Below are positions 12,335 through 30,018 of a stretch of 36,360 nucleotides of DNA, in pieces (the stretch's first letter is position 1; every line of letters starts with the position of its first letter). The DNA lies in NCBI GenBank assembly GCA_049599475.1, contig JBMYOQ010000041.1:1-36360 (forward strand). Reading direction: 5' to 3'. Below the pieces are notes generated by a model, which did no database searches, was not told the DNA's origin, and worked only from the letters and a program-made list of their open reading frames with translations. The position numbers were made by a program, and so were the translations under genes. Source of the DNA: Opitutales bacterium. GTDB taxonomy: Bacteria > Verrucomicrobiota > Verrucomicrobiia > Opitutales > JABSRG01.

Positions 12335-12688
12335 GGGGGTGTTTTTGGATTCGACTTCTGGCCGTAGGTTTGGGTGGCGCGTCGGAGTTGATCGCTTGGC
12401 TCCGTTATCAAGGCGATTACAAAAATTACTTGGCGAACAAGAATACGCCATGGCTGCCTAATAGCTGTAGCCCGTCCCATCCCGGATGCTCTCTAAGGGA
12501 ATGGGGCGTCGACTAGAGAGCACCTGTCCTTATCTTTCTCATCGGATAAGGACAAAATTTAGATGAGATGGTTTGGGAAAAGCGTGTTGCTGCGCGTTTC
12601 CTTCACGACACCAAATCAGCAAATACACGCGTAGAGGCCTATCCCGAAAACCAAAAGGACGCGGGTTCAACTCCCGCCACCTCCACCA
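12335..12688 (+). ncRNA. ssrA: tmRNA (one-piece), tag peptide (A)GEQEYAMAA
   Basis: 5' GGGGGTG...GGATTCGAC; 3' GGACGCGGGTTCAACTCCCGCCACCTCCACCA. Acceptor stem GGGGGTG/CACCTCC has the G3-U alanyl identity pair and an encoded CCA. Tag ORF GGC GAA CAA GAA TAC GCC ATG GCT GCC TAA TAG at 12432-12464; 354 nt. Confidence 0.97.
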
Positions 12689-12691
12689 TAT

Positions 12692-12704
12692 TATCAACGA
12701 CTTA
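12692..12704 (+). promoter_or_regulatory. IHF-consensus site in the attL arm
   Basis: TATCAACGACTTA matches WATCAANNNNTTR exactly, 3 bp after the tmRNA CCA. Confidence 0.6.
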
Positions 12705-12774
12705 CGGAATTCCTGCCAAATTCCTATCAAAAAGAAGTCGCATTCCCGCGCTGGGCGGCAAGACTAGGAAAGTC

Positions 12775-14004
12775 TTGGCAAAGAAGGAACAGAGCCCGCT
12801 CCAGGCCTGGGAATACCCGGCAGGGAGCTCCATCCGCATCCGTGAGGTCATTAACCGATATCAGGGGAAAGACTTCGGTGTGTCCTATCGTGTATCCATT
12901 CCTCTCAAATTAGCTGGTAGGAGAATCCTCAAACAGTTCGCCGATGCCGAGGAAGCTGAGGCATGGGCTGAGGCCGAATTTAAGGCTCTGCAGAAACGGG
13001 GATACAAGCATTACGAGGAACTTAGCTCATCTCAGCAGCAAGATGCTCGGGATGCCTTGGATATCCTCCAGGAGCTCGGCTTAAACTTGGTTGATGCGGC
13101 GAATTTCGTCCGAAAGAATTACAGGGTCGTTGACAGGAAGATCACGGTTTCTGATGCCGTGAAGGAAATGTTGAAGCTCAAAGAGGCCGAAAATCTTCGT
13201 CCGCGATCGATCAAGGATCTTCGAAATCGCCTAGCTCTCTTTGAATTGAGTTTCGGCGATGAAATGCTATCGGGGGTCGCGACGTGTGAAATTCAGAAAT
13301 GGGTGGATGAACTCACCACAGTGACGAAGGATGGGACGAGCAATATGTCTCCACGCTCCAAGAAGAACTATTTGGTGACCCTGAAAACCTTCTTCAATTT
13401 CGCGATCCAGAAGGGCTATCGAGCCAAAGAAGATAATCCAGCAGACGGCGTTGTTGTACCGATCATCGACTGGGAGGTGCCATCCATCCTGTCAGTCGCC
13501 GAAGCGCGCAAACTTATCGAGAAAGCTCGAAAATTCGAAGGCGGTATTTTGACTGCACCCATCGCCTTGGGACTTTTCGCGGGCATTCGAACCAAAGAGC
13601 TAGAGGAACTCGATTGGTCAGCCATCGATCTTGAAGAGGGGACGGTTACTATCGGCGCGAAGATCGCGAAGAAACGTGGCTTCCGTTTGGTAGAGTTATC
13701 AGAAAATTGCATTGCCTGGCTGAAAGCATCACCAGTCCAATCCGGTCAACTCGTGACCCATTCGATGCGTAAGATGATCCCGGGTCTTCACAAGGCAGCG
13801 GGATTCGAGAATTGGCGCGAAGAGAAGTCGAACGCGATGCGCCACAGTTTCGGCACCTATCACTATGCCTTGCACAGAAATTCAGCCCTCACTGCTTCGG
13901 CGCTCGGGCACAAAGCGAATGATCAGGTGCTGTTCGATAGCTACCGTTCACTTGCGCGAAAAAAGGACGGAGAGGCATACTTCAAAATTAAACCAAAACG
14001 CTGA
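12775..14004 (+). CDS. int: Tyrosine recombinase / phage-type integrase
   Basis: Catalytic motifs GIRTKEL (R), KIAKKR (K), NAMRHSF (variant of HxxRH), LGH and FDSYR (Y), plus a core-binding region. Start placed at TTG 12775 with AGGA at 12766-12769; the frame is open back to 12568, inside the tmRNA. Confidence 0.92.
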   Translation: MAKKEQSPLQAWEYPAGSSIRIREVINRYQGKDFGVSYRVSIPLKLAGRRILKQFADAEEAEAWAEAEFKALQKRGYKHYEELSSSQQQDARDALDILQELGLNLVDAANFVRKNYRVVDRKITVSDAVKEMLKLKEAENLRPRSIKDLRNRLALFELSFGDEMLSGVATCEIQKWVDELTTVTKDGTSNMSPRSKKNYLVTLKTFFNFAIQKGYRAKEDNPADGVVVPIIDWEVPSILSVAEARKLIEKARKFEGGILTAPIALGLFAGIRTKELEELDWSAIDLEEGTVTIGAKIAKKRGFRLVELSENCIAWLKASPVQSGQLVTHSMRKMIPGLHKAAGFENWREEKSNAMRHSFGTYHYALHRNSALTASALGHKANDQVLFDSYRSLARKKDGEAYFKIKPKR

Positions 14005-14008
14005 AGCC

Positions 14009-14218
14009 TCAGTTTTCTAATTTTTTCAGCGCCGTCAAGACAGCATCCCTACGGAAGATTTTCCGTCGTCCCACGCGAATGACGGGGATTACTCCTTTTT
14101 GGGTGTAGGTGCGCACGGATCGTTCTGACAAGCCGAGGAAAATCGATATCTCTCGTTCATTCATAAGAGCTGGAGGATTCGCACGAATGGATTCAGGGGA
14201 ATTGTCGGATAGCTGCAT
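14009..14218 (-). CDS. Excisionase-like helix-turn-helix protein (HTH_17/MerR-like)
   Basis: LMNEREISIFLGLSERSVRTYTQKGVIPVIRVGRRKIFRR pattern; 69 aa; convergent with the integrase. Confidence 0.82.
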   Translation of the reverse strand: MQLSDNSPESIRANPPALMNEREISIFLGLSERSVRTYTQKGVIPVIRVGRRKIFRRDAVLTALKKLEN

Positions 14219-14301
14219 AAACCTCTATGCGCAGAACTCCGCTCATTTACCTGTTGAAATTTAGGCACGGGCGGTATTTTGGGGGACAACAGGTATTGAA
14301 T

Positions 14302-17300
14302 TTAACAAGCTTGGTCTTGGTGGATGAACACTAAGTTCCTAACGGCCCAGTATTCTAATTGCTCTCTAATTTTATGATAATTCAGGTGACTCTCATTGAA
14401 TCGCTTTTTGATTTCTTCAGGCTGAATTTCCAATATCGCATCTATAACAAAAGTAATTCGGTCAGTAGAATATTCCTCCTCTCCGAGGAAATAGAGTGTA
14501 TCTAGAACTTTGCATAACTTTGAAAGGTATTTTTCGGATTTACTTTTTGCTAGACCGGAAGTAACCGCTTCAAATGTTTCAATTTCTGGCGTATCCATGT
14601 AACTGAAAAGCCTATCGTATGATTTCTCTCTTTGAGACTCATGTAAATCTCCTATACTATTCGCGACCCAATATTTAAGGCCTTCGTGGCATATCTCATC
14701 GAAGTTTTTGAGTAGGTCTAAAATAGTGCGTTCATAGTATGCCCTTGTATTGCTTTTCTTTCTTGATTTGCTGATGAATGAGAAAAGATACGGGTATCGA
14801 AAATTACCTATATCAGTCCTTTTGATTTCCGCTAAAAGCAGATCCTGAATATTTGTTAAATCAGCATCCAAATAGAATAGTTGATCAAGAATAACTCTTG
14901 AAATATCTTCGTCTTCGGTATCCATAGCGACTTGGAAAACCCTCTTGATTATCGATTGATCAGTGCTCCGTGCTAGTGCTTTGGAAGCTCTATTTATGAG
15001 CGATAAATCAGTTGTTGATTCTAGAATTTTCGCAATTGGATCGCCCTCAGAACCTAGAGAAACTCCATTTAGTGTATCCAGTGCAATGCTTTGTATAATG
15101 TTTTCGTTAGGGTTTAAGTGTAATGAATTAATTATTACATTATAAGATTGAGAATCGATACCGCCTTTAAAATCCAAAGCAAAGTACTCTGAGGGTTCTG
15201 ATCCTGTTCTAGCTATGTCGATTTTCTTATTAAAGAGAGCTATTTTTACTTTTGTAGAATTTGAATTTATAAGATAGTCCCAGATGTGCTTGATGTCTAC
15301 GTTGTTAGCGCTTTTTAGCATGTCACATGCGACATCAATACAGTTCTTTTCGTCATAATAATCTAGGTTTTTAAGAATATTAATTTTCTCTCTGTATGAA
15401 GTCATATTTGAAGACATTTTCGATAGCATGACATTAAGATTATCAGGATAGGCATACAGGATATTTTGTATTTTTTGGTGGAGTTCAAACTTTTTACTTT
15501 TCTCCATAGATTCCGATAAGCCAGTTATCTCTCTAATGGAATCGGGGACTTTCGAAGATATTGCGCTGATGTTTGAACGATGAGTCCAAAACTGAAGATG
15601 TGTTTCATTGTTATTCAGTGCTTGAACCATCTTCTCCGAAACCCAAACCGGATCTAGTTGGACTATGCATTCAATGCTGAGCCCATTCCACCTGAATTTA
15701 TTTATGTTTTGAATCAGGCCTCTTCTAATCACGTCAACTAATTTAAGGCTAGTTTTGAGGGAGTGTCGCATGTCGGCGAACACCAAGGCCGCATAGCAAT
15801 AAATCAATCCGTAGAAATCCGGATTGTCTAAGACATTTTCCCAATAGGTTAAGAAATTATTGAAATTGCAGGACCGTTTTTTTGTTGAGCCAATAAAGAA
15901 CTTCCATTCCTCAACATGCTGCCAACTCAAACCATATCTTTGTATGATCTCTGAGAATTCGTCAGGGGGCAGGGAATCCAGCTTTCTCCCTGCTAGGTAT
16001 TCTTGTATAGAAAAGTGGACGAAAGTGTAGTTTTGGTCAAACCCTCGTTGCTTCGTTATAATTCTCGAACGAGTAAATGATTCATAAGCGTCCGATGTCT
16101 TTATTAGTCTGTGCAGGTTAAATTCAATCTCCTTCTCTTTAGCTGTGAAACTTAGCGAAAAGGCTATTTCAGAAAATAATTTAATATCACTGTCTCGTAA
16201 TGTTGGGTGATATGACTCGGATCGTTGATACTTAATTGCCAGTCCCAGTAACTCTTCTATGAGAGCACTGGTTGATTCAATTTTTTGATTAGATGATCGA
16301 GGCTCGCATAAAACCTCGCATAGCGTAGTCGTTAAAAATGGATTTGTTGCTAGGCGCGATAGGGATTTGTCTTTATCAAGACGCTCAAGAATTGTATTTA
16401 TATTTTCAGGCTTTTTTAGGCTATTGCATACGCGCGTTACTAAGGCTCGCGTGGATGGGATACCCAAATCTTCAAGCTCATAAATTCCTGTATAACCGCC
16501 GCTTAAGAAACTGGGTAAACCAACAGGCCGTGTAGTGATAATTACATCGGCGAAATACTCAATGCTTCGGACTTCTAAAAGGTATCGCTGTTTTAAGCGA
16601 TCAGGGACTTCATCCCACCCATCAAAAATGAAAGTTGGTTTGATTCGGGCGTTTTCAAACAGATCCTCGAGTTCTTGTAAATCCGAAGAGAAATCCTTCT
16701 GTTTTGTTGCACAAAATCGTTTTAGAAAAAACTTTGTGATTGGTTCTACTTCACAGCCCTGGTTGGAACTTACGTAATCGCGTAATCTGACTACGATCGG
16801 AATTCGTTTCCACTTTTTGATGTCGGAGATAAGGGTGTGCGCTATCCACTTCGTGAGTGTTGTTTTTCCGAAACCAGGGCCACCCACAAAAATACTTACG
16901 TTTCTAAGAGTAAGAAGGATTGAATTGACTGATCGTGTAGATGGCGTTTCTACGGCATTGTCGGTAATGTTCGCATAAATATCTTTTACTTGTTCACTCT
17001 TAAAACGATCGTAATCCCGGCAGCCAGGTTCTACATAAATTTTTTCGATTGGGACTGGGTTCGATCCGAGTATAGAAATTGAATTCCATTCCGGCGACTC
17101 TAAGAGGGTCTTTTTCCATTGCTTCAAGCAGCGCGGGAGTAATACCTCAGCGGGTGCCTTCGGCTTGTGAATAGCAGCTCTTACGTGATCGGGTGTCTTG
17201 AAGCCCGGCCAAGTAAGAGGGTGAGATAAATGAAAAATTTTCAGGATTTTCTCGGCTGCTAATTTGAGATCACTGTGTCTGAGTTCATTGGTGGTGAAAG

Positions 17301-17859
17301 GAGACTTAGAATCTGGAGAGCCATTGTTGAGGACCTGAGCGTCCTTAAAAGTATCTTTTTTCAGCGAAACCTGAATTTTCGGGAAAAAATATGTGATAGC
17401 TTCTACTTGGCTCTTTCTTATCTCCGCACCGTTGGTGCATTGAAGTAACGGATCCCACACCTGAGACCACTCACTGCTACCTATGTTATTTTTCAAGGAA
17501 AGCATCTTTAGGAACCATTTACAGCGGCCATGACCAGAAGGTTGAAGCATTCTTGCAAGGTCCAGTGCAGGCCCTTTTCCAGTTCCACTCAATAGAAGGA
17601 TTTTTTGATCAGACCCAGGAAGCTCATCCACTTGTAAGATTTTCGCGTAAATGAGCATAAGTGCTATGGCGTGGGCAGAAACCGATGCGCTGGAAGATTC
17701 TCCAAAGATCATCGGGGACCCTATAGTGTAATGCACTTCCCCCATCTGAATGTCATTGGTTTTGCTTGTTGGCGTTGTGCAAAGTGCGCGCATAGATTTC
17801 AAGCTGAAGTCTTCATTCAGTTCTATGCCGAAGGCTTTAATGTCGTGATCGAGGCTCAT
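14302..17859 (-). CDS. NACHT (STAND/NLR-like) NTPase with unassigned N-terminal domain and C-terminal helical (HEAT-like) repeats
   Basis: IEKIYVE pre-NACHT motif, Walker A GGPGFGKTT, IPIVVRLRDY, Walker B FIFDGWDE, ITTRP, LATNPF, winged-helix FVHFSIQEYLAG. Visibly AT-rich. ATG 17859 preferred over 17970, which would overlap the divergent ORF as called from 17931. Confidence 0.88.
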   Translation of the reverse strand: MSLDHDIKAFGIELNEDFSLKSMRALCTTPTSKTNDIQMGEVHYTIGSPMIFGESSSASVSAHAIALMLIYAKILQVDELPGSDQKILLLSGTGKGPALDLARMLQPSGHGRCKWFLKMLSLKNNIGSSEWSQVWDPLLQCTNGAEIRKSQVEAITYFFPKIQVSLKKDTFKDAQVLNNGSPDSKSPFTTNELRHSDLKLAAEKILKIFHLSHPLTWPGFKTPDHVRAAIHKPKAPAEVLLPRCLKQWKKTLLESPEWNSISILGSNPVPIEKIYVEPGCRDYDRFKSEQVKDIYANITDNAVETPSTRSVNSILLTLRNVSIFVGGPGFGKTTLTKWIAHTLISDIKKWKRIPIVVRLRDYVSSNQGCEVEPITKFFLKRFCATKQKDFSSDLQELEDLFENARIKPTFIFDGWDEVPDRLKQRYLLEVRSIEYFADVIITTRPVGLPSFLSGGYTGIYELEDLGIPSTRALVTRVCNSLKKPENINTILERLDKDKSLSRLATNPFLTTTLCEVLCEPRSSNQKIESTSALIEELLGLAIKYQRSESYHPTLRDSDIKLFSEIAFSLSFTAKEKEIEFNLHRLIKTSDAYESFTRSRIITKQRGFDQNYTFVHFSIQEYLAGRKLDSLPPDEFSEIIQRYGLSWQHVEEWKFFIGSTKKRSCNFNNFLTYWENVLDNPDFYGLIYCYAALVFADMRHSLKTSLKLVDVIRRGLIQNINKFRWNGLSIECIVQLDPVWVSEKMVQALNNNETHLQFWTHRSNISAISSKVPDSIREITGLSESMEKSKKFELHQKIQNILYAYPDNLNVMLSKMSSNMTSYREKINILKNLDYYDEKNCIDVACDMLKSANNVDIKHIWDYLINSNSTKVKIALFNKKIDIARTGSEPSEYFALDFKGGIDSQSYNVIINSLHLNPNENIIQSIALDTLNGVSLGSEGDPIAKILESTTDLSLINRASKALARSTDQSIIKRVFQVAMDTEDEDISRVILDQLFYLDADLTNIQDLLLAEIKRTDIGNFRYPYLFSFISKSRKKSNTRAYYERTILDLLKNFDEICHEGLKYWVANSIGDLHESQREKSYDRLFSYMDTPEIETFEAVTSGLAKSKSEKYLSKLCKVLDTLYFLGEEEYSTDRITFVIDAILEIQPEEIKKRFNESHLNYHKIREQLEYWAVRNLVFIHQDQAC

Positions 17860-17972
17860 TTTTGGACAGAGGCTGTAAGTATACAGGCGTCCTGATAGTA
17901 TACAAGTGATATACAGGTCACTGTACAGAGATGACCTGTTGTCACCTCGGCGAAAAGGGGAATCGGGCAAAA

Positions 17973-18938
17973 ATGCGGAACATGGCTAAAACACCATGTA
18001 CTATTCTTATACCGACAGATCCGGAGGCTCTAGCTATCTGGATCTCTGAAAATCGTGCTAAATATATCAATCTAGTCCGTTCTCATGACATCTCAGAGCA
18101 GGATGCGGAGGATATATACAGTAATTACACTAAAACGTTAATAACGTTAGGGCCTAAAAGGCTTGGTATTCCGAGTATTCAAAGCTTTGTCATGCGACTC
18201 TATCGTAATCGTGATAATTTCATCCGACGTCGTAGTGCCAACAAACGACAGGGAAGCAATGCCGGTCTCGATTTCGTTGAATACCAAGAGCGCATTTATA
18301 ACCTGTCCAACAGCGATGAATTCGCAAGCTGGATATTGGCGCACGGTCCCTTCGCGATTAATTCGATCTTAGCAAGAGCGAGTGATCTGACGCGAGAGGA
18401 TGCCGAGGATATTTTCGGGGATCTTCTCATGGGTCTCACCTTTCGTGGCTATGACAAAATCGGAGAACCGACGACTCAAAACCTCATGTGTCATTTAAAG
18501 CGTTATTATATTCGTTTCGTTCGCAGACGAAATGCCCAGAAACGCGGTTGCGGGGATGCCGATGCTGCGTTTGCGGATTATCATACCAGTCTTTTTGGTA
18601 AATTCTCCACGTCTTCGCCAGATATTCGAGTCGGGTACCGTGATCTGCTAGGTCGAATTATCGACGATGCATCGTTCTCGAAGTCGATCAAGGAGAGGTT
18701 GTTGCTCGATTACATCGGTATTCTTCAGTCGGACGATGTTCCGGCTATTTATGAGGCGATGTCTGCCCGCGAAAGAGGCAAGTTCTTGCCGAGGAGAAAA
18801 GTGGGTGCAGAGGAGTATCGTAGCGTGGTTCAGAATGGAATGCACCGAACACTTTCCGAGCTACGCAAGCGCTTGCGCCACTTTCGCAAAAAAATGTCGG
18901 AGCAGATCGCGCTGCCTCACGCATATAGCTCTGAATAA
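17973..18938 (+). CDS. ECF sigma-factor-like protein with tandemly duplicated region-2-like domain
   Basis: Two copies of W...DAEDI(Y/F)...F(I/V)RRRxAxKRxG, 99 aa apart; C-terminal VVQNGMHRTLSELRKRL resembles the region-4 recognition helix. Start is 17973 or 17982. Confidence 0.6.
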   Translation: MRNMAKTPCTILIPTDPEALAIWISENRAKYINLVRSHDISEQDAEDIYSNYTKTLITLGPKRLGIPSIQSFVMRLYRNRDNFIRRRSANKRQGSNAGLDFVEYQERIYNLSNSDEFASWILAHGPFAINSILARASDLTREDAEDIFGDLLMGLTFRGYDKIGEPTTQNLMCHLKRYYIRFVRRRNAQKRGCGDADAAFADYHTSLFGKFSTSSPDIRVGYRDLLGRIIDDASFSKSIKERLLLDYIGILQSDDVPAIYEAMSARERGKFLPRRKVGAEEYRSVVQNGMHRTLSELRKRLRHFRKKMSEQIALPHAYSSE

Positions 18939-18965
18939 AAGTATTAACCTTACGGAATTATCAAC

Positions 18966-19235
18966 ATGGAAACACTCTTTAATCCGGATACCATCGCGAT
19001 TCTTGCGCAGCTCACCAGTCTCACTGACGCTGTGCAGCAGGCTATGGAGACCTTCAAGCTTATCATTGGGATGCTTGTTATCGGCGTGATCATTTACGCG
19101 GGCATTCTCTTTAGCCAAGGCCAGATTGCCCAAGCTGCTTACTGCTTCTTTGGAGCAATCGTGATCGCCACAAGCTTCTTGGTGGCTTCTAGTCTGATGG
19201 AAGCGACTGGTTCAGATCTCCCACCACTCGGTTAA
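18966..19235 (+). CDS. VirB2/TrbC-like pilin (two hydrophobic helices)
   Basis: 89 aa, two TM segments joined by SQGQ, first gene before the VirB4-like ATPase. Confidence 0.55.
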   Translation: METLFNPDTIAILAQLTSLTDAVQQAMETFKLIIGMLVIGVIIYAGILFSQGQIAQAAYCFFGAIVIATSFLVASSLMEATGSDLPPLG

Positions 19236-19236
19236 C

Positions 19237-21990
19237 GTGAAGGATAAACCAGAACTACGCTGGAAATCCACCCACTTCTCCGACGAGCGACAAATTTCCG
19301 TTGGGAAATTTGTAGGAGCCCAAGTCTACGGACTTGGGCTTTCCTTAGTTTTAGGAATCTCGGTAGTGGGTGTGTTAGTACATAGCTTCAATTGGCCCGT
19401 TGTAACGAGTGCGCTGCTCGGGGCCAGTTTACCCATCGTGACCGCTTGGGTCTTACTTAAATTCGTCGTAGACAAACCTCGTGGATATATGACCGACCTG
19501 CTTGAGTGGAAGATGCGCAATCTTTCAAAGACCAGTCTCCTTCCACGGAATCAGCGGGGTTCGCAGTATGCCAGTCGCATTGAAGGAGACGCTGTCATCC
19601 ACGGCGATCCCGAAAGCTCTCTAATTCAGGGGGTTCGCATCGAGCTGCCCGGCTGGGAAAATCGCTCGGAGGAAGAGCTCCTAAGCCTTGAATCGATGAT
19701 TCGAGGGATTTTGGGCCACGCTCAGAATGATATACGCCTGCAGTTCAAGTGGTCTACAGGCTCCTATGATAGGGCGATTTTAAAACGCTACTTCGATGAC
19801 ACCGAATTGAAAGGGAGCAACGCTTGGTGCCGAGAACAGCGGAATTTCAATATCGCCCGACTTGCTGAGCAGAACAAAAGCGGGGTTCTGCGCGAGCCGA
19901 AGGTCCAACTCTTCTTATCGAAACCCTTATCTTCCGGCGAGAATGCGGTTCAGACGGCAAAGGCAGAATTGCGTTTGCCTATAGAAGACATCATTCGGCG
20001 AGTGAAATCGCTCGGTGGCTATGCGCAGATTTTATCAGAGTCCGATTTGATTGAGTTGCATCAGAAGCACTTCCATGTATCGGATAAAGAAGGCCATTTC
20101 GATCCTAACGTTTCGATTCTGGACACCTTGCTTGAGGGCGAAATCGAGGGGTGCGAAGCACCTGGTGCCAGTATTTGTGTCAATGGCGTTCATCATGGTT
20201 TCGCGATAATGAACAGCGTTCCATTGGCTACCATTCCTGGTATGATGGCATCCATTGCCCTTCTGGAGTTCAATGAATTCAGTATCAGCCTTAAAGTGCG
20301 TCTCATCGACCGAGATAAACTGATCCAGAGTGAGGAGAGTGAAGTAGAAAAGCTTGAAAGGGCGTATCGCGCGAATGGTAAAGAATCCCTAACGAGCACA
20401 AGTCAGAGCATCCGTCAGCGCATCAAACGACTGCTCACGCGCGAATCGCACCCGATGCACTTCCAATTGTTTGTTCACTGTTGGGCTGATTCACCAGAAC
20501 ACTTATCGAAGCGACTCAAGAAAGCGTCAGGGATGATCGAAGCACTCAATGCAGCTAAATCACATGTCCTCGAAGTACCCACTAGTTGCTGTAAGGCATT
20601 TTTCAATACGATGCCCGCAAGTGGGTATTCGGATGATCAAGGAAAACAGTACCTAGAAGACGTGAATCTCGCCGATTTGGTTCCGATTTGTGGAGGCAAT
20701 GGTGAACTTGGGACGAAAAATGAAGCTCTCTTCAACGCGGCTCACGGTTCTTTGCATGGTTTAAACACATTTAGCCCCCAAACGGGTTCTCCCCTCCATT
20801 GTATGGTTACGGGAAAAACGGGTGTAGGCAAGAGCTGCACAGTGAGCGAGGTGGCCACCCAAACGGGTATTCATTTTGATACCACGGTGATCTTGGATTC
20901 CGGCAAGTCGCATGCCTGCTTTGTCATGGCTAATGATAAAAACGCGAGGGTTTTAGAGATCGATCAACACAGTAAGGAAGTTCTCAATTACATGAGTACA
21001 AATGGAAGCCCATTCAGTCCTGAACACTTGCAGGCAGTGGTCCCCATTGTAGGCATTTTTGCTGCAAAGTTCATCGAATCTGTCGAGTATGGAGAGTCCC
21101 TCATATCTGAAAAACTCAATGAGTTTTATGAGTATTGGGCAACGCGGGGTGATGGGGTTAAAGTGAAAGATGGTTCCACTGCATGGTATTCTTTTTACCA
21201 CAACTTGCCTGAGGAAAAGCAGCCCACGCATTCCGATTTTCAAGCGTGGCTGAAGGAGGACTCGAAGAAAGAGTCCGAGTTTTCACACAAGGTGAGTATC
21301 TTGGCCCTGATCCTATCTCGTTGGTGCAAAGGCAAAGGGGGGCCGTCGTTGTTTGACGGAGTGGGGACGGTTTCTTTGACAGGGAAAACGGTTTATGTTG
21401 AGCTCGGGAAGTTAGCGTCTGCCCCGAAAGAGATAAAAGCAGTGACTGCGCATATTATCTCAAATATCATTGTTTCACATTTGATGCGTTTGCCACGCGA
21501 CTTGCCCAAGCGCATTATTGTCGAGGAACTGGGTGCATTTCTGGATATCGAAGGGGCCCATGCTGTTATCCGTAATCTCTACGAGCGTATGCGGAAAAAT
21601 AACGTTTGGGTGTGTGCGGTTATACAGCAGATTTCGAATCTGCCCAACGAAATAGCAGCTTCGGTTCTTGGTAATTGCAGCCAAGCAATCATTCTTCCCC
21701 AGAAATACGAGGCAGATGTTCGCATGCTTCAAAAGGCGTTTAACTTGCCTGACGCTGCCGTGCAGCGTTTGAAGAGCTTTGGTCCGCCAACGAAAGAGAC
21801 GGGGGCTCCTTTCCTCCACATGGTCAGTGAAGGTGAGCGTGTTCAGGTAAATACTGCTTATAGCATAGCAAGTCCAGAAATGCTGTATGTCTCCGATTCA
21901 GGTGGAAAGCACTTCGAGAAACGCGAGAAGGCATTGGCACAATACGACGACATTCTTGAGGGCATCTCTATCGAGGCGCGGAAACCCTAA
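19237..21990 (+). CDS. virB4: VirB4-family conjugative ATPase with fused N-terminal VirB3-like membrane domain
   Basis: Two N-terminal TM helices followed by DKPRGY; Walker A GKTGVGKS, ILDSGKSH, SLFDG, Walker B region RIIVEE, MRKNN...VIQQ, VLGNC; 917 aa. Confidence 0.85.
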   Translation: MKDKPELRWKSTHFSDERQISVGKFVGAQVYGLGLSLVLGISVVGVLVHSFNWPVVTSALLGASLPIVTAWVLLKFVVDKPRGYMTDLLEWKMRNLSKTSLLPRNQRGSQYASRIEGDAVIHGDPESSLIQGVRIELPGWENRSEEELLSLESMIRGILGHAQNDIRLQFKWSTGSYDRAILKRYFDDTELKGSNAWCREQRNFNIARLAEQNKSGVLREPKVQLFLSKPLSSGENAVQTAKAELRLPIEDIIRRVKSLGGYAQILSESDLIELHQKHFHVSDKEGHFDPNVSILDTLLEGEIEGCEAPGASICVNGVHHGFAIMNSVPLATIPGMMASIALLEFNEFSISLKVRLIDRDKLIQSEESEVEKLERAYRANGKESLTSTSQSIRQRIKRLLTRESHPMHFQLFVHCWADSPEHLSKRLKKASGMIEALNAAKSHVLEVPTSCCKAFFNTMPASGYSDDQGKQYLEDVNLADLVPICGGNGELGTKNEALFNAAHGSLHGLNTFSPQTGSPLHCMVTGKTGVGKSCTVSEVATQTGIHFDTTVILDSGKSHACFVMANDKNARVLEIDQHSKEVLNYMSTNGSPFSPEHLQAVVPIVGIFAAKFIESVEYGESLISEKLNEFYEYWATRGDGVKVKDGSTAWYSFYHNLPEEKQPTHSDFQAWLKEDSKKESEFSHKVSILALILSRWCKGKGGPSLFDGVGTVSLTGKTVYVELGKLASAPKEIKAVTAHIISNIIVSHLMRLPRDLPKRIIVEELGAFLDIEGAHAVIRNLYERMRKNNVWVCAVIQQISNLPNEIAASVLGNCSQAIILPQKYEADVRMLQKAFNLPDAAVQRLKSFGPPTKETGAPFLHMVSEGERVQVNTAYSIASPEMLYVSDSGGKHFEKREKALAQYDDILEGISIEARKP

Positions 21991-22048
21991 ATTAATTCGC
22001 GGAGCTTAGACGCTCCCTGCGCATATCAATCTGAATACTCAGATTGAT

Positions 22049-22357
22049 ATGCATTATCTTAAATACATTACTCTAATTACGTGCGCGGGTTCATCCGCGC
22101 TCTTGTCGACCGGTTGTTCTTCTGTCGGCTACTACAATAGGGAGCAAATGCAGGGCTCCTTGGACTACGCTCATGATCGTGGCTTCACCGATGGGGTTGG
22201 ACATCAAATACGGCTGAATGAGCACGAACGCCAGAACGAGCTGGAGAAGCGCCAGATCAAGGAGACTTACTACCGCATCCCTGTGAGTGGGCATACGACC
22301 GAAGACGGCATCATCATTGAGCCACATGTGGTGCCTATTCGTATCATCACCGATTAG
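22049..22357 (+). CDS. Small lipoprotein, VirB7-like by position
   Basis: Signal peptide with lipobox-like LSTG-C; 102 aa; inside the T4SS operon. Confidence 0.5.
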   Translation: MHYLKYITLITCAGSSALLSTGCSSVGYYNREQMQGSLDYAHDRGFTDGVGHQIRLNEHERQNELEKRQIKETYYRIPVSGHTTEDGIIIEPHVVPIRIITD

Positions 22358-22362
22358 ACGTC

Positions 22363-23163
22363 ATGAAATATTCACTACTTGTATTTTTCGTCTTTATTTT
22401 GACGTGCATGCCATTCACTTCGTTGGAAGCTGCATGGCCGGTGGTTGACTACAGCCAACTGCAATTGAAGGCTTTTACATCAAAACGGGCTATTCTTCAG
22501 GAAATCCTTCAAGAGGGTAACCAGCGTGTTCAAATCCTTAAAATGGTGGAGCAGATCCGTCAGATTGATAGGCAAATCGAGCTCCTAGGTGACCCGAGCA
22601 AAGTAAACCTGAGGACATTGCGTCGGTTGTATCGTCTCATCGAAGATATCCCCATTTCCAAAACTGCGGAGGAGCTTGAAGCGGTCTTTCATCCAGATTT
22701 TCTTTTTGCGGAAAACGCGGCGTTTGATCCTGTTAGTCGAGAGATCCGGATAGACGGTGCTACGGTTGCTCAGCGCGATAGCGCGCTCTTCATTCCAGAA
22801 GTCAAAGCGCGGCAGGCATTCGATCACTACGACTCCGTAAAGAGCCACAGCCTAGATCGGCGGGCTGAATTGGACTCGGAGATTCAGGATGCTCTGGATC
22901 AATTACAAACGGCTCAGACCGATAGTGAAGTGCAGAAGCTCAATGGTTTGATCGTGACGCTCAACGTTCGCCGGGCTGAAATGAGCGACGAGATCGAGCT
23001 GGCCGCGACCGAAGCTTCGAGTCGTTTCTACCGTAATCGTGTCGAATCGGACATTGCTCGCAAGGTGCGTTTCCAGGATGAGCGCGTGCGTTATCGGGTA
23101 GGAGCCCAGAAACACCTCGAGTCCTTCCCCATGCTCGACTCACCCGTGATCTTTAAGCCATGA
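22363..23163 (+). CDS. VirB5/TrbJ-like secreted helical protein
   Basis: Signal peptide LEA-AWPVVD (the PVxD start typical of VirB5/TrbJ), Gln-rich coiled coils, directly upstream of the VirB6-like gene with ATGA overlap. Confidence 0.6.
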   Translation: MKYSLLVFFVFILTCMPFTSLEAAWPVVDYSQLQLKAFTSKRAILQEILQEGNQRVQILKMVEQIRQIDRQIELLGDPSKVNLRTLRRLYRLIEDIPISKTAEELEAVFHPDFLFAENAAFDPVSREIRIDGATVAQRDSALFIPEVKARQAFDHYDSVKSHSLDRRAELDSEIQDALDQLQTAQTDSEVQKLNGLIVTLNVRRAEMSDEIELAATEASSRFYRNRVESDIARKVRFQDERVRYRVGAQKHLESFPMLDSPVIFKP

Positions 23164-24203
23164 GCGAAGCAAACCTTATTGATAGTTTTCCTGTCATTTA
23201 CCAGACGTCTCAGGATTTGCACGGCCAGCTTCTTCCGGTTGCTTTTTTGTGTACTGGGATCGGCCTTGCAGTCCGGGTTTTCAAGGGAAGCTTTGGTGAC
23301 CCCTCTGGGCTTGTTCGTGCAGTCCTATCTGCATGTATTGTTGCGGTGTGTATCTCGCAGTTCGCCTTGTGGGTGAACTCCCTGCAGCTGGCGGCGCATA
23401 GCCTCGTCGAGAGCATGGATGTCAACCCGGCTGACACCAATCGCCGCTACGCCGAACTAGTGCTAGGAGCCCAGGAGGAGAATGCTGCGCCTCGAGGCTT
23501 TTGGGATATTTTGTGGTCTGATGATGCTGGGTTTGGTGAAGCAATCACATATGCTTTGATTTTCCTGTCATCGCAATTGGCGTGGGCGTTGAGCTACCTC
23601 TTGAAAATTGTGCAGCAGGTTATCCTCGTATATTCGATATCCCTGTCGCCGGTGTTTCTGTCTTTTTTCCTGATAGACTATTTAAGGCCGATGGCGGGAC
23701 GGTTCATTATGACGATCGTCAGTGTCGGACTTTGTCCTCTGGGCTGGGCTATCGCTGATCAACTGACAGATGCATTGATGCAGATGGCTGTCGGCACCGA
23801 AAATACTTTAGCAGGGAATAGTCAGGCTCTGTTTTTCGTTATTGTGCTGACTTTGTGGATACTCTTTAGCTCCATCGCCGCTCCCTTGGTGATCATCAAA
23901 ATTCTCTCGCAAGGTGCTGACGGGATGACGACCTTGCTTAGTGGCTTTGGCAGCAGTGTGTCTCAGGGCGCAGCGTATGGGGCTGGAGGTGCCGTTGCCA
24001 CGCACATGATGGGTGCAGGGCCTATCGCTACCTCAGCGAGTGCATTCGCATCTGGTGTTGCTGGAGTGGCTAGCGGTGCCGCAGGTCGCAGCAATATGCT
24101 CGTCCCATCCATGATCGGTCTATCCTTGGGAGCGGCATCGTCTTCCACGCATTCATCCGGGAGCTATACCGATCGAGCACGCGAAATCTTCGAAAAATCA
24201 TGA
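23160..24203 (+). CDS. VirB6/TrbL-like polytopic inner-membrane protein
   Basis: Five to six hydrophobic segments, LSPVFLSF and LCPLGWAI motifs, Gly/Ala/Ser-rich tail as in TrbL. Confidence 0.72.
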   Translation: MSEANLIDSFPVIYQTSQDLHGQLLPVAFLCTGIGLAVRVFKGSFGDPSGLVRAVLSACIVAVCISQFALWVNSLQLAAHSLVESMDVNPADTNRRYAELVLGAQEENAAPRGFWDILWSDDAGFGEAITYALIFLSSQLAWALSYLLKIVQQVILVYSISLSPVFLSFFLIDYLRPMAGRFIMTIVSVGLCPLGWAIADQLTDALMQMAVGTENTLAGNSQALFFVIVLTLWILFSSIAAPLVIIKILSQGADGMTTLLSGFGSSVSQGAAYGAGGAVATHMMGAGPIATSASAFASGVAGVASGAAGRSNMLVPSMIGLSLGAASSSTHSSGSYTDRAREIFEKS

Positions 24204-24802
24204 AAACCACTATGTCCATTATCAAACGCTACAAGCATATGACCCACCTTAGTTTGGGCCTATGCTTTCTCGTAATCGGGATTTCAACGGTCGATCGTTG
24301 GAATCTCGCGCGGAGTATCCAGGAAGGGCCGCGATTTGTCGTTGTCGACGATACAACCTTCATGTTTCCGCGCTCTTTCGTGTTTCAAGACGCGCATACT
24401 ATGCATCGTGAGCAAGCGGTCCTTGCAGCTACCACACTGCTGAGCCGTTCGCCTAGTGGGATCGATAATAGAGATCGTCTTGAAGCACTCTATCACCCCG
24501 ATGCCTTCGATGAGGCGATGAAGCTCGTGAACCGGGAAGACCCTGTCTTCCAAGCCAAGTCCATTCATCAAAAAGCTACGGTAGCTGAGACGCGCTTGCT
24601 GCATTTGAGTAATCAGGCTGTGAAGACATCCGTCATCGGTCAGCTGCTTCGCGTCGGTTTGTTCGAAGATGAGACCGTTGTCGAGGTCCTCGATTTTGAA
24701 CTCAGCAGCCATTTTGTGCTCAATCCAAACTCAGTCCAGAATGGCCGCTACCCCACTATTGTATCCGAATTTAAATTAAAGATTAAACCATCCTCATTAT
24801 GA
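24200..24802 (+). CDS. VirB8/TrbF-like bitopic protein (resembles Bacteroidota TraK)
   Basis: Single N-terminal TM, FVVVD, alpha/beta periplasmic part ending NGRYPTIVSEF; overlaps both neighbours by 4 nt. Confidence 0.6.
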   Translation: MKTTMSIIKRYKHMTHLSLGLCFLVIGISTVDRWNLARSIQEGPRFVVVDDTTFMFPRSFVFQDAHTMHREQAVLAATTLLSRSPSGIDNRDRLEALYHPDAFDEAMKLVNREDPVFQAKSIHQKATVAETRLLHLSNQAVKTSVIGQLLRVGLFEDETVVEVLDFELSSHFVLNPNSVQNGRYPTIVSEFKLKIKPSSL

Positions 24803-25659
24803 AAATCGCAGCCCTACTAGCACTCATATCTACGTCATTGATGGCGTATCAACCCAAGGATCCCGAATCCGTTCATCTGGATCCCGAGAATATTCTCCCT
24901 GTTTATCTGAATCAAAATATTGATACGCTTCTTTTATTCCCTGAGCCGATTGAAATGGTGTCTGGAGTCGGCTTCAGTGAAGATTGGGAAACCTCGGATA
25001 TTCACTACCGCGCTAGCTCCAATAGCTATCGTCTTGTTCTTAAACCTAAAAAGGAGGTCTTTTCAGCTTACCTCAAAGTGAGTATCGACGGAGACGTCTT
25101 TGTGCTGCACTGCCTTCCCAGTGAGACACCGTCTACAGTTATTCGTTTTAGGCCTCCTATTCCCGTTTTGGAACCGTTTGTCGTGACTGCCGAGATTGAT
25201 CTTCCTGAACTCGAAGATCTGCTCCGTAAACCCACCCGTGAACGGCAATTTGAGTTGATGCGCCTAACCTACGAGGAAGAGGTGCTGAGGAAGCAAATAC
25301 CGTCATTATTCGATGGATACAGCTCGAAGGTCGTAAACAAGTCACACACGTCTGGGCACTTTGAAGTGACATTTGAGAAGCTCGGGCGTTTTGCGCATGA
25401 AGATGCGCTTGTTGTGGTGGCCAATGTGAGTTTCCTCCCCGGATACCGCGACCTCGATCCTACTTGGAAGCTGCGTCTCAGGATAGGTCCACAGAAGGTG
25501 TTTCCTTTCAATGAAATCCATTTTATTGCTGCTCCGACCTCGGGCCACGCTCCACTGCAATTTGTCGCGATTCTTGTCGGAGACGGATTCGGGGGGCCCG
25601 GGCACTACAGTCTCGAGAACGACTTCCACATCGAATTCATCGAAAACGGGGTTTTCTAA
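24799..25659 (+). CDS. VirB9/TraN-like outer-membrane core complex protein
   Basis: Signal peptide, DTLLLFPEPIEMV motif, beta-rich, between VirB8-like and VirB10-like genes. Confidence 0.6.
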   Translation: MKIAALLALISTSLMAYQPKDPESVHLDPENILPVYLNQNIDTLLLFPEPIEMVSGVGFSEDWETSDIHYRASSNSYRLVLKPKKEVFSAYLKVSIDGDVFVLHCLPSETPSTVIRFRPPIPVLEPFVVTAEIDLPELEDLLRKPTRERQFELMRLTYEEEVLRKQIPSLFDGYSSKVVNKSHTSGHFEVTFEKLGRFAHEDALVVVANVSFLPGYRDLDPTWKLRLRIGPQKVFPFNEIHFIAAPTSGHAPLQFVAILVGDGFGGPGHYSLENDFHIEFIENGVF

Positions 25660-26576
25660 TGCGTTTACGTAAACGTACACGCCAGCTTCTGTTATTTACG
25701 GCATTGGTCCTAGTCCTCGGAGCTGTGGTAACGATCGACATGATCCGCAATATGAAGCCCAATCCGGAGGATACCGTTGAGCGCTTGCCGAAGATTCCGG
25801 TTATTCAGGAGGAGATTGATTGGAAAGACCCAGTGATCGATACGCCCGAGCCTGAGGAAATCTTAGCCACGTTTAAAGAAGACTTCGAACCTCTTCGTAT
25901 TCGTAAAACTGAGACAAAGGTTGCTCCACAGCCGGAGGCGGCCGAACCGGAACCTGTCGAGCTCCCCCCTGAGGCCTCCATTGTCTTTGACGAGCGTCCG
26001 GTCGTTCCTAAGGAGGAAAGCGCTGTCGACATTCTGGAGCTCCCGTTTGGCACTATGATCTACGCGCGCCTTATCACGCCAATCTACTCGCATAGCGCAA
26101 GTGGGCAGCGTGTCACCTTGGAGCTTACACGTTCGCTGGTTATTGATGCACGGTCTATTCTGATCCATAAAACGCGACTGAGTGGTAAGGTGACGGGCCT
26201 CAACAACGGGCACGTGGAATTCGAACGTCAGTGGCAGATCACCGATGGGTTCCAAAAAGGTAAAGTCCTCGAAGTTCAGCTTCAACAGGCCGACTACGAT
26301 CCACACACTGCCCGCTATGGTCCCTTAGATGGTGCGAATGGAATCCGGATGGCCGATGAGTCAAAGGATATCGAGATCGAGCCTACAAAGGCTGAACAGC
26401 TGTTCCTAGATATCGTAAAGCCTGCGATTTCTCGCAGCCTTTCACCGGACGATTTATATCTCCCTGATCTATCCGGTTTAGGCGGAGATCCCTTCGGAGG
26501 GAGTCCAGGCATGCCGCCGGATCCGCCCGGTTTCTTCGTTCCATCTGGAGCGCTTGTTTATTTAGTCGCAGAATAA
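25659..26576 (+). CDS. VirB10/TrbI-like protein
   Basis: N-terminal TM, Pro/Glu-rich linker, LPFGTMIYARL, DGANGI and terminal FFVPSGALVYLV, matching the TrbI/VirB10 beta-barrel pattern. Confidence 0.68.
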   Translation: MRLRKRTRQLLLFTALVLVLGAVVTIDMIRNMKPNPEDTVERLPKIPVIQEEIDWKDPVIDTPEPEEILATFKEDFEPLRIRKTETKVAPQPEAAEPEPVELPPEASIVFDERPVVPKEESAVDILELPFGTMIYARLITPIYSHSASGQRVTLELTRSLVIDARSILIHKTRLSGKVTGLNNGHVEFERQWQITDGFQKGKVLEVQLQQADYDPHTARYGPLDGANGIRMADESKDIEIEPTKAEQLFLDIVKPAISRSLSPDDLYLPDLSGLGGDPFGGSPGMPPDPPGFFVPSGALVYLVAE

Positions 26577-26586
26577 GGCTCTCATG

Positions 26587-26621: not shown

Positions 26622-26627
26622 GTTGGC

Positions 26628-28088
26628 TCAATACCAAGGGTAGATGCCGCCTTTACCATCGATGGGCGCGAGCTTCTTTTTTCTAAAGCGTTTCGATGGG
26701 TGCACGATTACCGCTTGATGATCCGGGAGCCTGAGGAGTTTTTCGGGCTTTACGTAAAACTCTTGTTCTTGGCGTCTACTTACTGTGACTTGCCCTAGCG
26801 GCTTTGAAGAGCGTGTTTGCTTCCAGATCGTGCGTTTGCCAATGAATTTCGCACTCAGCTCCGCATCATCGGCATCAGCGGCGCGGAAGATGAAGCGGGT
26901 GCGGAGATTGAGTGAAAGAACCTTACGTTTGCGTTCGCCGATGGCTGGATCTGCTGAGAGCTCGGATTGCATGCCCGCGATAATCGCTGTCTTGGCGGAG
27001 CGGATACGGTCGACGATTTTGTGGTCTGAAATACCGTCCTCGCTGGATGTCACGAGATCTTGAAATTCGTCGGCTACGAGCAGCAGCAAGTTCTCATTTC
27101 TGCGTAACGCATCCAGTTTATCCAGCCGAGAAAGCGCTTGGTTGTAAAAGAGCATCTTGAGGTAGGTTTGAACGTAGCGACGCTCACTTGCTAGGGATTG
27201 CGGCATCGTAATAGTTATTACTGCGCCGTTGTTAACCTCGTTGAACGAAAAAGTATTCGGCAAATCACTAGAGAACACTGCCGCAACATCTGGATTGGTG
27301 AAAAACCCAAGGTATGTTTTTATGGTGCCTTCGATCGCTTCACGTTGTTCGTAAGCCTTGGCATCGATGAATGAGGTCTGGAAGAACGCGATGAGCCTCA
27401 ATCGCTCAGGAGTAGGCTCCAGCCGTTTTAGGCGTTTTATAAATTTGGCGGCAATTTCTTGGGATGTGAGCAAATCGTAAGTCCGGGTGAGGGTTACGGG
27501 TAAGCGCAATTCATCGATGAGCGCGAAGGCATTGGCCATCGCTATTTGAGCCATCGGGCGAAAGAACGCGTGTTGCTGTCCGTCTGTCATGCTTGCCGCG
27601 ATATCCACGATGTATTTTGCGTGAGTCATCCATGGTATCCGACGGTCACTAAGAAGATTAAAACGGTGTGGAGGTATCCAGTTTGTGGATACAGCGGTGG
27701 GGCGAACTTGTAGGTCGATCAAATCATCTTTGCGTCCTGCATGATCGAGCAGTTCAGAAATATATTCTGACTCATCGCCTTTCACTCCCAACACGAGGCC
27801 ACCCCAGTTTGGCACATTTTTACTGATTTGAAATAAGATGGTGTGGAAGCCACTGGTCGTCTTGCCGCAGCCGGTATCACCGCTTAGCAGGCAATGCCGG
27901 AAAAGTTCTTCGGCTGTCCAAGTCAGAGAACCAAAACGCAGCAATACGCGGCGTGTTTTGATCAGCAAAACACAATACCCGCCTACGGCGGAGAAACCAA
28001 GGAATGCGATGCCTAGATCGCCGCCTGTGTATCGAAAAACAAAAAAGCCGAGCAAGAGGAGCCCGGCCGCAATAAGGGATTGTATCAT
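26628..28088 (-). CDS. virD4: Type IV coupling protein (VirD4/TraG/TraD family)
   Basis: Two N-terminal TMs, Walker A GDTGCGKTT, GGLVLGVKGD, FNLL, Walker B LLVADEFQ, RIRSA...GMQS, FIGK. ATG 28088 lies 1 nt after the upstream stop. Confidence 0.87.
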   Translation of the reverse strand: MIQSLIAAGLLLLGFFVFRYTGGDLGIAFLGFSAVGGYCVLLIKTRRVLLRFGSLTWTAEELFRHCLLSGDTGCGKTTSGFHTILFQISKNVPNWGGLVLGVKGDESEYISELLDHAGRKDDLIDLQVRPTAVSTNWIPPHRFNLLSDRRIPWMTHAKYIVDIAASMTDGQQHAFFRPMAQIAMANAFALIDELRLPVTLTRTYDLLTSQEIAAKFIKRLKRLEPTPERLRLIAFFQTSFIDAKAYEQREAIEGTIKTYLGFFTNPDVAAVFSSDLPNTFSFNEVNNGAVITITMPQSLASERRYVQTYLKMLFYNQALSRLDKLDALRRNENLLLLVADEFQDLVTSSEDGISDHKIVDRIRSAKTAIIAGMQSELSADPAIGERKRKVLSLNLRTRFIFRAADADDAELSAKFIGKRTIWKQTRSSKPLGQVTVSRRQEQEFYVKPEKLLRLPDHQAVIVHPSKRFRKKKLAPIDGKGGIYPWY

Positions 28089-28089
28089 T

Positions 28090-28536
28090 TTACCTGAGAA
28101 ATAGAAAATATAGAGTTGCAGCGCTGACCAATGCGCCCGTGGCAAACGGAAAGACCCAGCCTAAGCGGCTGGGTCTTTCGGCCGCGGCATCAGCTTGAGT
28201 CCGTATGATGCGTTTCAGTGCAGTTTCATGGTTTTCCAGACGCTCGGCCATACGGCGGAGGTCTTCGTAGGAAGGGACAGACTCTTTGATCGCGTCATGA
28301 ACAACTGTTTTGAGTTCTTCATTGCTGCCACGTGGGGCGCTGGATTTAAGGATCTCTTGAATATCTTCTGGGACCCGTTGCCAAAGCAATGTCATGAATC
28401 CAATTGCTTCGAGGACTTGAAGGTATTCGTCATCTTGTGGCACGCTCTTGAACCTTGCGCACATCAATAGAAAACGTTCTCGTTGTTCGGATGGGAGCAG
28501 TTTGGCTACCTCTTCAAGTGTACTTGACGCACTCAC
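28090..28536 (-). CDS. Helical protein with C-terminal membrane anchor (StbC/TraM-like by position)
   Basis: C-terminal TM WVFPFATGALVSAATLYFLFLR; GTG 28536 just after the upstream stop; third gene of the HTH-ATPase-membrane triad. Confidence 0.5.
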   Translation of the reverse strand: MSASSTLEEVAKLLPSEQRERFLLMCARFKSVPQDDEYLQVLEAIGFMTLLWQRVPEDIQEILKSSAPRGSNEELKTVVHDAIKESVPSYEDLRRMAERLENHETALKRIIRTQADAAAERPSRLGWVFPFATGALVSAATLYFLFLR

Positions 28537-28541
28537 AACCA

Positions 28542-29267
28542 CTAGGGAACAAGGATGTCTTTTGCAGATGTGAAGCCATCCCAAAGTTCTTTGCTGTAGG
28601 CCTTTGCGCGGGTGAGAATGCGTGTTTTTTGAAAATACGGAATATCCACCTGACGATCGATGATCTGCTGAAGCGTGACCGTATGGTTGCGGATCTCCGA
28701 TTGGATTTCCTGGATACGCGCCTGCATGCTGATCACTTTGGGGGCGAACGCTGCTTCAAATTGGGCGACAGCGGGCTCTTGATGCCAGTATTCAAACTTG
28801 CAGTCCTTTTCGCGTAGTGCATTGAGCACGACAAGGTATTCGACATCGTCTTGGAGATGGTCCGCCCATTTCAAGACCGACTGCACCGCGCCTGCCTCAT
28901 TGTTTGTTACGCCGATTGCGGTGAAATGAATTCCGAGGGATTTTGCCTCGCTGGCGACCTCTTCGAACCACTGGTAGGTGGAAGTTCCAGCCCCGGAGCC
29001 CAGGTCCGCAATGATCACCTTGCTCTCATCGCTATCACAAATATCGAAAAAGGAATCGAGAGCTCCCTCAGCATGGACGTCATATTTCTCCGCCTCTGGG
29101 TAAAAATTTTTGAGCCCTGATTTATTGGTATTCTCAATGTCAAAATCGAGAAGAATGGGGTCGAAACCCTGTGAGTGATACCAAGGGATCAGTGCAAACA
29201 CGACTTCGCTTTTGCCGACTCCGCCTTTCCCGCCCTGTGTGAATACAATACGCTTTTTATCAGTCAT
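28542..29267 (-). CDS. ParA/MinD-like ATPase (StbB/TraL-like)
   Basis: Deviant Walker A GGKGGVGKS, LLDFDIEN, IIADLGSG, YLVVLN; 241 aa. Confidence 0.8.
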   Translation of the reverse strand: MTDKKRIVFTQGGKGGVGKSEVVFALIPWYHSQGFDPILLDFDIENTNKSGLKNFYPEAEKYDVHAEGALDSFFDICDSDESKVIIADLGSGAGTSTYQWFEEVASEAKSLGIHFTAIGVTNNEAGAVQSVLKWADHLQDDVEYLVVLNALREKDCKFEYWHQEPAVAQFEAAFAPKVISMQARIQEIQSEIRNHTVTLQQIIDRQVDIPYFQKTRILTRAKAYSKELWDGFTSAKDILVP

Positions 29268-29314
29268 AATTAGAAATCTTTGGATTTCTAACTAATGCGT
29301 TGTTTATCCCTGAA

Positions 29315-29668
29315 CTATCCGGACACATTTCGATTAATTTGAATGGGCTTGGATGCGTCGTAGCTGAATTTTTTCTTTCGCCGTTTTTTCATTGGAGCGG
29401 GCTCTGAATTCTGCGTAGGACGGCTGTTCTGGATATCAGTGCTTGCTCTGTGAAGGCGCACTTCTGTTGCGGGTGGGCCTTTTGAGATATTTCGAACTTT
29501 GCAGAACTGCCTGACGGCCTCACCGGAGATTGAAAAATTGCATTCTTCTGCGAGCCATTGAGCGATCGCATCATGCGGCCAGTTCAGAGACCTCATTTCG
29601 ACGATGTCATCTCTCCAAGTTTCGAGCTTACTCACGTTGGTGCGCTGGTAAGGTGTATGTTTTTTCAT
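29315..29668 (-). CDS. Small HTH-type DNA-binding protein (StbA/TraK-like by position)
   Basis: SKLETWRDDIVEMRSLNWPHDAIAQWLAEECNFSISGEAVRQF HTH-like pattern and basic tail. ATG 29668 chosen because the longer ORF runs through the repeat array. Confidence 0.55.
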   Translation of the reverse strand: MKKHTPYQRTNVSKLETWRDDIVEMRSLNWPHDAIAQWLAEECNFSISGEAVRQFCKVRNISKGPPATEVRLHRASTDIQNSRPTQNSEPAPMKKRRKKKFSYDASKPIQINRNVSG

Positions 29669-29689
29669 ACACTGATATGCGTCAATAGC

Positions 29690-29761
29690 CTTGGAATGAC
29701 CTTGGAAAAGTCTTGGATGCTTACTTGGGAAACCCTTGGAGGGTGCTTGGAGAACCCTTGC
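29690..29761 (+). repeat. Seven CTTGG direct repeats at 11-12 bp period
   Basis: CTTGG at 29690, 29701, 29712, 29724, 29735 and 29746, and CTTGC at 29757; spacings 11, 11, 12, 11, 11, 11. Confidence 0.85.
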
Positions 29762-29777
29762 CGGACACATGCCCCCT

Positions 29778-29982: not shown

Positions 29983-30018
29983 CACCCGTTGTGGGTTCGA
30001 ACTACGAAAGGAAGTATT

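Follow-up and report, generated by a model that had tools for sequence, protein, structure and literature searches.

The gene at positions 17973..18938 of the window (the whole 36,360-nt stretch of DNA from a marine Opitutales bacterium analyzed here) stands first in the mating-pair operon of a conjugative element integrated at a tmRNA gene and is best explained as encoding a protein that derives from verrucomicrobial ECF sigma factors. We assign a probability of about 0.55 to a reading in which this protein is the element's own alternative sigma factor: the second of its two region-2-like repeats, together with region 4, would form the working unit, a promoter in the divergent intergenic gap would be its target, and the product of a divergent partner gene would gate it.

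A sigma-like gene with a duplicated region 2

The gene, on the forward strand, encodes 321 amino acids from the start used here (other candidate starts, 17931 and 17982). It comprises repeat 1, an extra sigma-2-like domain with a DAED motif (18027..18293, +); repeat 2, a sigma-2-like domain with DAED that is continuous with the tail (18303..18557, +); and a sigma-4-like domain (18612..18911, +), with regions 2 and 4 on one polypeptide, in one open frame supported by contigs. A preliminary description of this DNA had quoted nine motifs, all of which are present within the single open frame, and had placed the two copies 297 nt apart, as are the DAED motifs at 18102 and 18399. It had given the copies as ~85 amino acids long; there are two, with a true period of 99 amino acids, ~85 being the extent of the sigma-2 core.

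Alignment of the two halves of the protein gave a score of 125, compared to 28.8 ± 4.8 (maximum, 58) in 2,000 shuffles, with 30 of 95 aligned residues identical between the repeats. A family HMM built without the window protein matched it twice, at residues 19-107 (59 bits) and 111-311 (150 bits). A contig from a second study spans 18084-18468, including the repeat junction, with 0 differences, and a single contig of a possible source run covers 12659-29848. An assembly artefact as the origin of the duplication is ruled out by the second-study contig, and the repeats are ~30% identical. The duplicated layout of the gene is real.

Profile and fold evidence for a sigma factor

Profile and predicted fold each match both repeats to ECF region 2, and the ECF-type sigma2-sigma2-sigma4 layout put forward in the preliminary description is supported by the family HMM, the predicted fold, and hhalign. 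When the family profile was compared with 19 canonical verrucomicrobial ECF-type ORFs, hhalign returned 98.9% (E = 1e-17, 146 columns), with an alignment that begins in region 2, reaches the first helix of region 4, and stops at an insert. This insert, which is family-wide and lies at the turn of the region-4 helix-turn-helix (18762..18824, +), amounts by alignment count to ~15 extra residues relative to canonical ECFs and adds one extra helix (265-271; pLDDT of the stretch, 95-98). Several family members matched TIGR02937 below its cut-off (best E, 1e-7), all 48 profile-found homologues scored under the cut-offs of the curated Pfam and NCBIfam models, and the window protein had no match in Pfam, NCBIfam, PHROGs, or PADLOC.

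A single-sequence fold of the protein was uninformative (pLDDT, 43). The structure model was built on the family alignment (pLDDT, 78.5), with inter-domain packing that is not confident (pTM, 0.40). Against 48,161 chains, the best six rows were ECF sigmas or the PhyR sigma-like domain. Repeat 1 (model residues 9-90) resembled AlgU region 2 (Z, 7.2; rmsd, 3.0; 81 aligned), repeat 2 (residues 111-195) resembled Bartonella RpoE region 2 (Z, 8.9; rmsd, 2.8; 82 aligned), and the tail (residues 214-313) resembled Fusobacterium sigma-H region 4 (Z, 6.4; rmsd, 3.3; 75 aligned), these Z values of 6 to 9 being modest and within the range usual for helical bundles. Foldseek with the model returned nothing significant (top row, 9n9q, the sigma factor of an RNA-guided transcription complex; E = 0.44), nor did PDB sequence searches with the protein. 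Since the Z values are modest and the Foldseek result is not significant, the sigma assignment rests on the agreement of profile and fold.

DAED is present in both repeats of the window protein and is the best-kept motif of the family (D, 77%; E, 81%; D, 73%), while the region-2.4 Asp, kept in 62% of the family, is missing from both. The protein shares with ECF (group 4) sigma-70 factors of the verrucomicrobial KRGG type the region-2 fold, DAED, a KRGG-like motif, a short linker, and a region-4-like tail; it differs from them in its region-4 insert, its mobile-element context, its two region-2 domains, and the lack of a curated-family match. We infer that it is a divergent ECF-derived sigma factor, predicted to bind core RNA polymerase and to activate the tra genes.

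The duplication within a single-domain family

A search of 1.84 billion representatives with a four-row profile gave 49 matches, including the window protein. An HMM from the other 48, of which 3 or 4 are fragments, matched each of them once and the window protein twice. Genome searches added 7 more distinct homologues with one domain each, so that a single sigma-2 domain was found in 55/55 homologues. In database proteins, gene calling could mask a further repeat; in the 12 relatives for which long stretches of surrounding DNA are available, it could not. The duplication is, as far as these sequences indicate, private to the window element.

Two single-repeat homologues at the same position were reached via VirB4, one on contig C87 of the same genome and one in another genome (G045). 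The latter was the only match to the window protein among 17 VirB4-like regions in a single-sequence search of low sensitivity, and more distant T4SS relatives seem to be without such a homologue. Word-index protein searches yielded nothing beyond the inputs or one known match; viral-contig scans, a plasmid search with the closest relative (P0004), and a metagenome VirB4 scan yielded nothing. One candidate member, L150, was excluded as an unrelated ECF-type gene.

The preliminary description had proposed, for a sigma-type activator of an integrative and conjugative element (ICE), an architecture that it did not know from any described conjugation regulator. The duplication itself stands, in this copy only; the activator has a precedent. 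In Tn916, Sig7-8 is an ICE-encoded, auto-activating split sigma factor needed for excision and conjugation-gene expression (10.64898/2026.10.01.756105, as far as the accessible text goes), so sigma control of an ICE was already known. The likeness is one of role: Sig7-8 is the product of two genes of a Gram-positive ICE, whereas the window protein is a single ECF-derived chain encoded at the head of a VirB-type operon. The main text of the ECF reclassification (10.1101/2019.12.11.873521), in the part accessible, does not mention conjugation, plasmids, tandem, or Verrucomicrobia, and titles and abstract openings in the literature, with few subscription journals covered, gave no such family, tandem region-2 sigma, or CHAT-sigma-conjugation link. 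The family, one of conjugation-linked sigma-like proteins, is thus far undescribed in the literature searched and, with its partner genes, is a stronger lead than the duplication.

The gene heads the mating-pair operon of a conjugative element

The left end of the element (12335..14004, +) consists of a tmRNA gene (12335-12688), an attachment site (12665-12692), and a tyrosine integrase gene. The tmRNA end recurs as a 28-nt copy at C69:19719-19746, placing a putative right end on a contig other than that of the window. The ICE location proposed in the preliminary description is upheld by the tmRNA, att repeat, integrase, VirB4-like ATPase, coupling protein, and relaxases, all present in the element.

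The sigma gene ends at 18938, and the ATG of a VirB2-like pilin gene (18966..19235, +) follows after the previously reported 27-nt gap; the pilin, which has no profile match, was recognized by position, hydrophobicity, and homologues. Next come a VirB3-VirB4-like fusion ATPase (19237..21990, +; P-loop_TraG, E = 4e-9; TIGR00929, E = 3e-17) and six further mating-pair genes in an order kept in relatives (22049..26576, +). On the opposite strand are genes for the coupling protein, a TraL/ParA-like ATPase, and a small putative DNA-binding protein (26628..29770, -), and two relaxase genes occupy 33293-36343. Profiles name VirB4 and the coupling protein; the remaining VirB labels, including VirB5/6/8/9/10-like, are positional. 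The N terminus of the window VirB3-VirB4-like fusion matches separate small ORFs in relatives; the two are fused in the window, L141, L143, and L145 and separate in G045, G945, C87, and others.

Linkage of the homologues to tra operons, suggested earlier as a synteny check, was found: the sigma gene lies directly upstream of a co-oriented pilin gene at 12/14 loci. Of the 11 loci reached solely through the sigma profile, 9 have it directly before the pilin gene and 10 have it touching the tra block. The closest relative, P0004 (locus L149, on a 1.9-kb contig), has a methyltransferase-like gene downstream instead of the pilin. At L144 (6247-9521), the block of pilin, VirB3, and VirB4 genes is turned around with respect to the adjacent sigma gene and the remaining operon genes. 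Contig C87 (L046) of the window's own genome (G000) carries a second such element, which has a TPR-CHAT gene, RadC, and a sigma homologue with one domain; the two sigma proteins may cross-talk.

Several other features of the region were recorded. One relaxase is a short MobF/TrwC that lacks a helicase, and the other is a MobP accompanied by MobC; G045 and G945 have both. A candidate oriT (29690-29812) has a hairpin and a nic-like 9-mer (29799-29807), which we take to resemble TrwC-type nic sites; it adjoins six 5-nt repeats with an 11- to 12-nt period before a small gene (29315-29668), an arrangement that recurs in G045 and G945 with different repeat sequences. At 29989-31787, a Fic-domain gene is followed by a small ribbon-helix-helix antitoxin-like gene, with short direct repeats at ~29930-30000. 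Outside the element, a host gene (4084-11922, -) encodes a 2,612-amino-acid protein with beta-propellers, Ig/PKD domains, and a di-haem cytochrome c peroxidase-like domain.

Repeats and hairpins flank the sigma genes

The 113-nt divergent intergenic region of the window contains four 7-nt direct repeats (17880..17928), spaced 19, 11, and 12 nt apart, that form a candidate operator. Across the 14 loci, the 110 nt upstream of the sigma starts hold direct repeats with an 11- to 12-nt period, a pattern that was spotted before it was tested: at lag 11 there are 49 matches versus 6.6 ± 3.1 in shuffles, a value reached in 0/300, and 8 of the loci are significant singly. With three close kin removed, 25 matches remain versus 5.0, the best lag of any of 150 shuffles reaching 19. 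The window repeats by themselves are modest (shuffle P = 0.017; 2.7% of random genome windows; 58/1,178 element windows), and the repeat sequence varies from element to element. No shared promoter motif or k-mer rose above shuffles in the 14 upstream regions, and a sigma-70 promoter scan stayed at chance level.

A significant hairpin was found between the sigma stop codon and the pilin gene in 8 of 11 relatives (L029, L109, L141, L142, L143, L145, L147, and L148); some of the hairpins have U-tracts, and they lie just before the pilin start. None was found in the 27-nt gap of the window. Simple cotranscription of sigma and pilin genes is complicated by the hairpins in these relatives, where they would imply read-through control of the tra genes.

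A model for activation and the role of repeat 1

In the model that we favor, an ICE-encoded sigma factor at the head of its operon, repeat 2 and region 4 would dock on host RNA polymerase, and the docked sigma would drive a promoter in the divergent intergenic region. By transcribing its own gene and the tra genes, it would set up an auto-amplifying switch, which the partner, a NACHT fusion in the window, would gate via the direct repeats or by binding the sigma protein. Repeat 1 may act as a brake. The beta-prime clamp helices hold one region 2 at a time, and the linker of an ECF sigma passes through the RNA exit path. Because only one region 2 can be held and what comes after repeat 1 is a folded domain instead of a threadable linker, docking of repeat 1 would be unproductive, and activation would be damped or delayed. 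That repeat 1 is an in-gene duplicate kept as a second, damping DAED surface is a weaker claim, which we offer tentatively as one option among several for this repeat.

The idea that the sigma factor is kinase associated, made in the preliminary description, did not hold up: a Ser/Thr kinase catalytic-loop motif was found in 0/17 regions scanned, and no kinase domain was found among 25 window ORFs. EcfP (ECF43) lacks DAED, is activated by phosphorylation, and needs its kinase, whereas DAED is intact in both window repeats. PhyR uses a sigma-like domain as an anti-sigma decoy, but on a separate response regulator, while the window repeat is in the sigma protein itself (both comparisons follow the accessible portion of PMC8999054).

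Repeat 1 has a family-likeness score of 0.58 and repeat 2 one of 0.65, within a family range of 0.07 to 0.97; judged by these scores, repeat 1 is not decayed and appears as family-like as typical members. Identity between the repeats by codon position is 0.48/0.61/0.33 in a protein-guided alignment, which makes the measure partly circular. In a simple neutral simulation at 0.5 to 1 substitution per site, the frame of the copy stayed open in 2 to 4% of runs, and with indels it did so in 0/3,000. In a tree of 60 rows and 94 columns, the repeats are sisters at 92/77, under the starred threshold, with branch lengths of 1.04 for repeat 1 and 0.84 for repeat 2. The simplest reading of these sequence data is that an old in-gene duplication has probably been held by selection.

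It is also conceivable that the protein is a sigma factor of the ICE that works like its single-domain relatives, with repeat 1 being a tolerated passenger or left untranslated by a start at ~18192. One region 2 suffices for all 55 homologues, the database entry for the window protein (P0001) is a 248-amino-acid call from the internal ATG near 18192, inside repeat 1, packing between the domains is not confident in the model, and the branch of repeat 1 is the longer. We nevertheless consider this rather unlikely, since the internal ATG comes only after the W, R, DAED, and LG that are conserved in repeat 1, an open frame at such divergence is improbable without selection, and the 113 nt to the divergent gene fit the 103 to 125 nt measured in four relatives only with a start near 17973.

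Divergent partners and CHAT or NACHT neighbors

A gene lies head to head with the sigma gene at 12/14 loci. In the window, it is a NACHT fusion with weakly matched HEAT repeats (14302..17859, -) and a low GC content of 0.40. Its N-terminal domain of ~255 amino acids has no family match and resembles the divergent gene of G045 (E = 1e-11), where it stands alone; it is perhaps also present on a NACHT protein in L144. A winged helix of the OmpR type was looked for in this domain and not detected (hhalign, 0.0 to 0.2%). Of the 12 head-to-head genes, 9 form one family, encoding proteins of 340 to 390 amino acids, often with a TPR-CHAT neighbor (L109:1103-2188, L107:9247-10272, L141 to L143, and L145 to L148). 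The C-terminal part of this family matched DUF4384 in 2 of 9 members, weakly and below the cut-off, and comparison with the nine detected no homology to the window partner domain. Among selected neighbors scanned at 13 loci, TPR-CHAT proteases are nearby at 6 and NACHT ATPases at 2; the window has no CHAT gene, and no CRISPR effector was seen in the regions retrieved.

Two known systems invite comparison. In type III-E systems, Csx30 is a sigma-binding substrate of the TPR-CHAT protease Csx29, the sigma factor being RpoE (10.1101/2022.08.17.504292). A sigma factor, a DUF4384-like partner, and a TPR-CHAT protease occur in both this system and relatives of the window element; the output here would be conjugation, the window has a NACHT fusion instead, and the likeness of partner to Csx30 lies in the DUF4384-like part. 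Large SARP regulators such as AfsR, as described in the accessible text of PMC10936776, resemble the window partner in joining an N-terminal domain to a nucleotide-binding oligomerization domain and helical repeats, and their direct repeats of 11- or 22-bp period resemble the 11- to 12-bp arrays. AfsR, however, uses the housekeeping sigma, and the window partner domain has no detectable OmpR-type winged-helix homology.

These neighbors suggest a protease- or STAND-gated anti-sigma cascade in which the divergent protein would inhibit the sigma factor until released by TPR-CHAT or NACHT activity, with repeat 1 as a threshold-lowering decoy. It would account for the TPR-CHAT and NACHT genes near the partner and for the weak DUF4384 matches, DUF4384 being one type of Csx30 C terminus according to the accessible part of the same report (10.1101/2022.08.17.504292). 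We regard it as quite improbable, as those matches are under the cut-off, the window is without any CHAT gene, no homology was detected between its partner domain and the DUF4384-type partners, the arrays suggest that the partner binds DNA, and the CHAT and NACHT genes may be defense cargo. A sigma-derived protein that does not initiate, serving as a DNA- or polymerase-binding repressor, appropriator, or antiterminator of the tra operon, would suit the altered region-4 helix-turn-helix, the absent region-2.4 Asp, and the hairpins right before the pilin, with scant space for a new promoter, but it is very unlikely indeed given that DAED is the best-kept motif of the family and the full region 2-linker-region 4 layout is maintained.

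On a broader and more speculative view, which we think unlikely to hold as a whole, a CRISPR-free cascade would decide transfer in verrucomicrobial elements, with a swappable sensor of threats (TPR-CHAT protease or NACHT ATPase) acting on the divergent partner and the partner acting on a dedicated sigma factor whose remodeled region 4 would read the 11-bp arrays or the partner. The window would then represent a variant with sensor and partner fused, no hairpin before the pilin, and a region-2 decoy setting the threshold.

Implications

Control of conjugation in Verrucomicrobiota is essentially uncharted in the literature searched. For the element described here, a candidate master switch, a likely operator, and upstream partners have been identified, each of which is directly testable. 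A natural sigma factor with two DAED-bearing region-2 domains offers a test case for a sigma carrying its own competitor, and the CHAT/NACHT link, if real, would couple the decision to transfer to sensing of an immune type. The duplication, a one-off, is of less weight than the family that it brought to light, which points to a way of switching on DNA transfer that has not been described.
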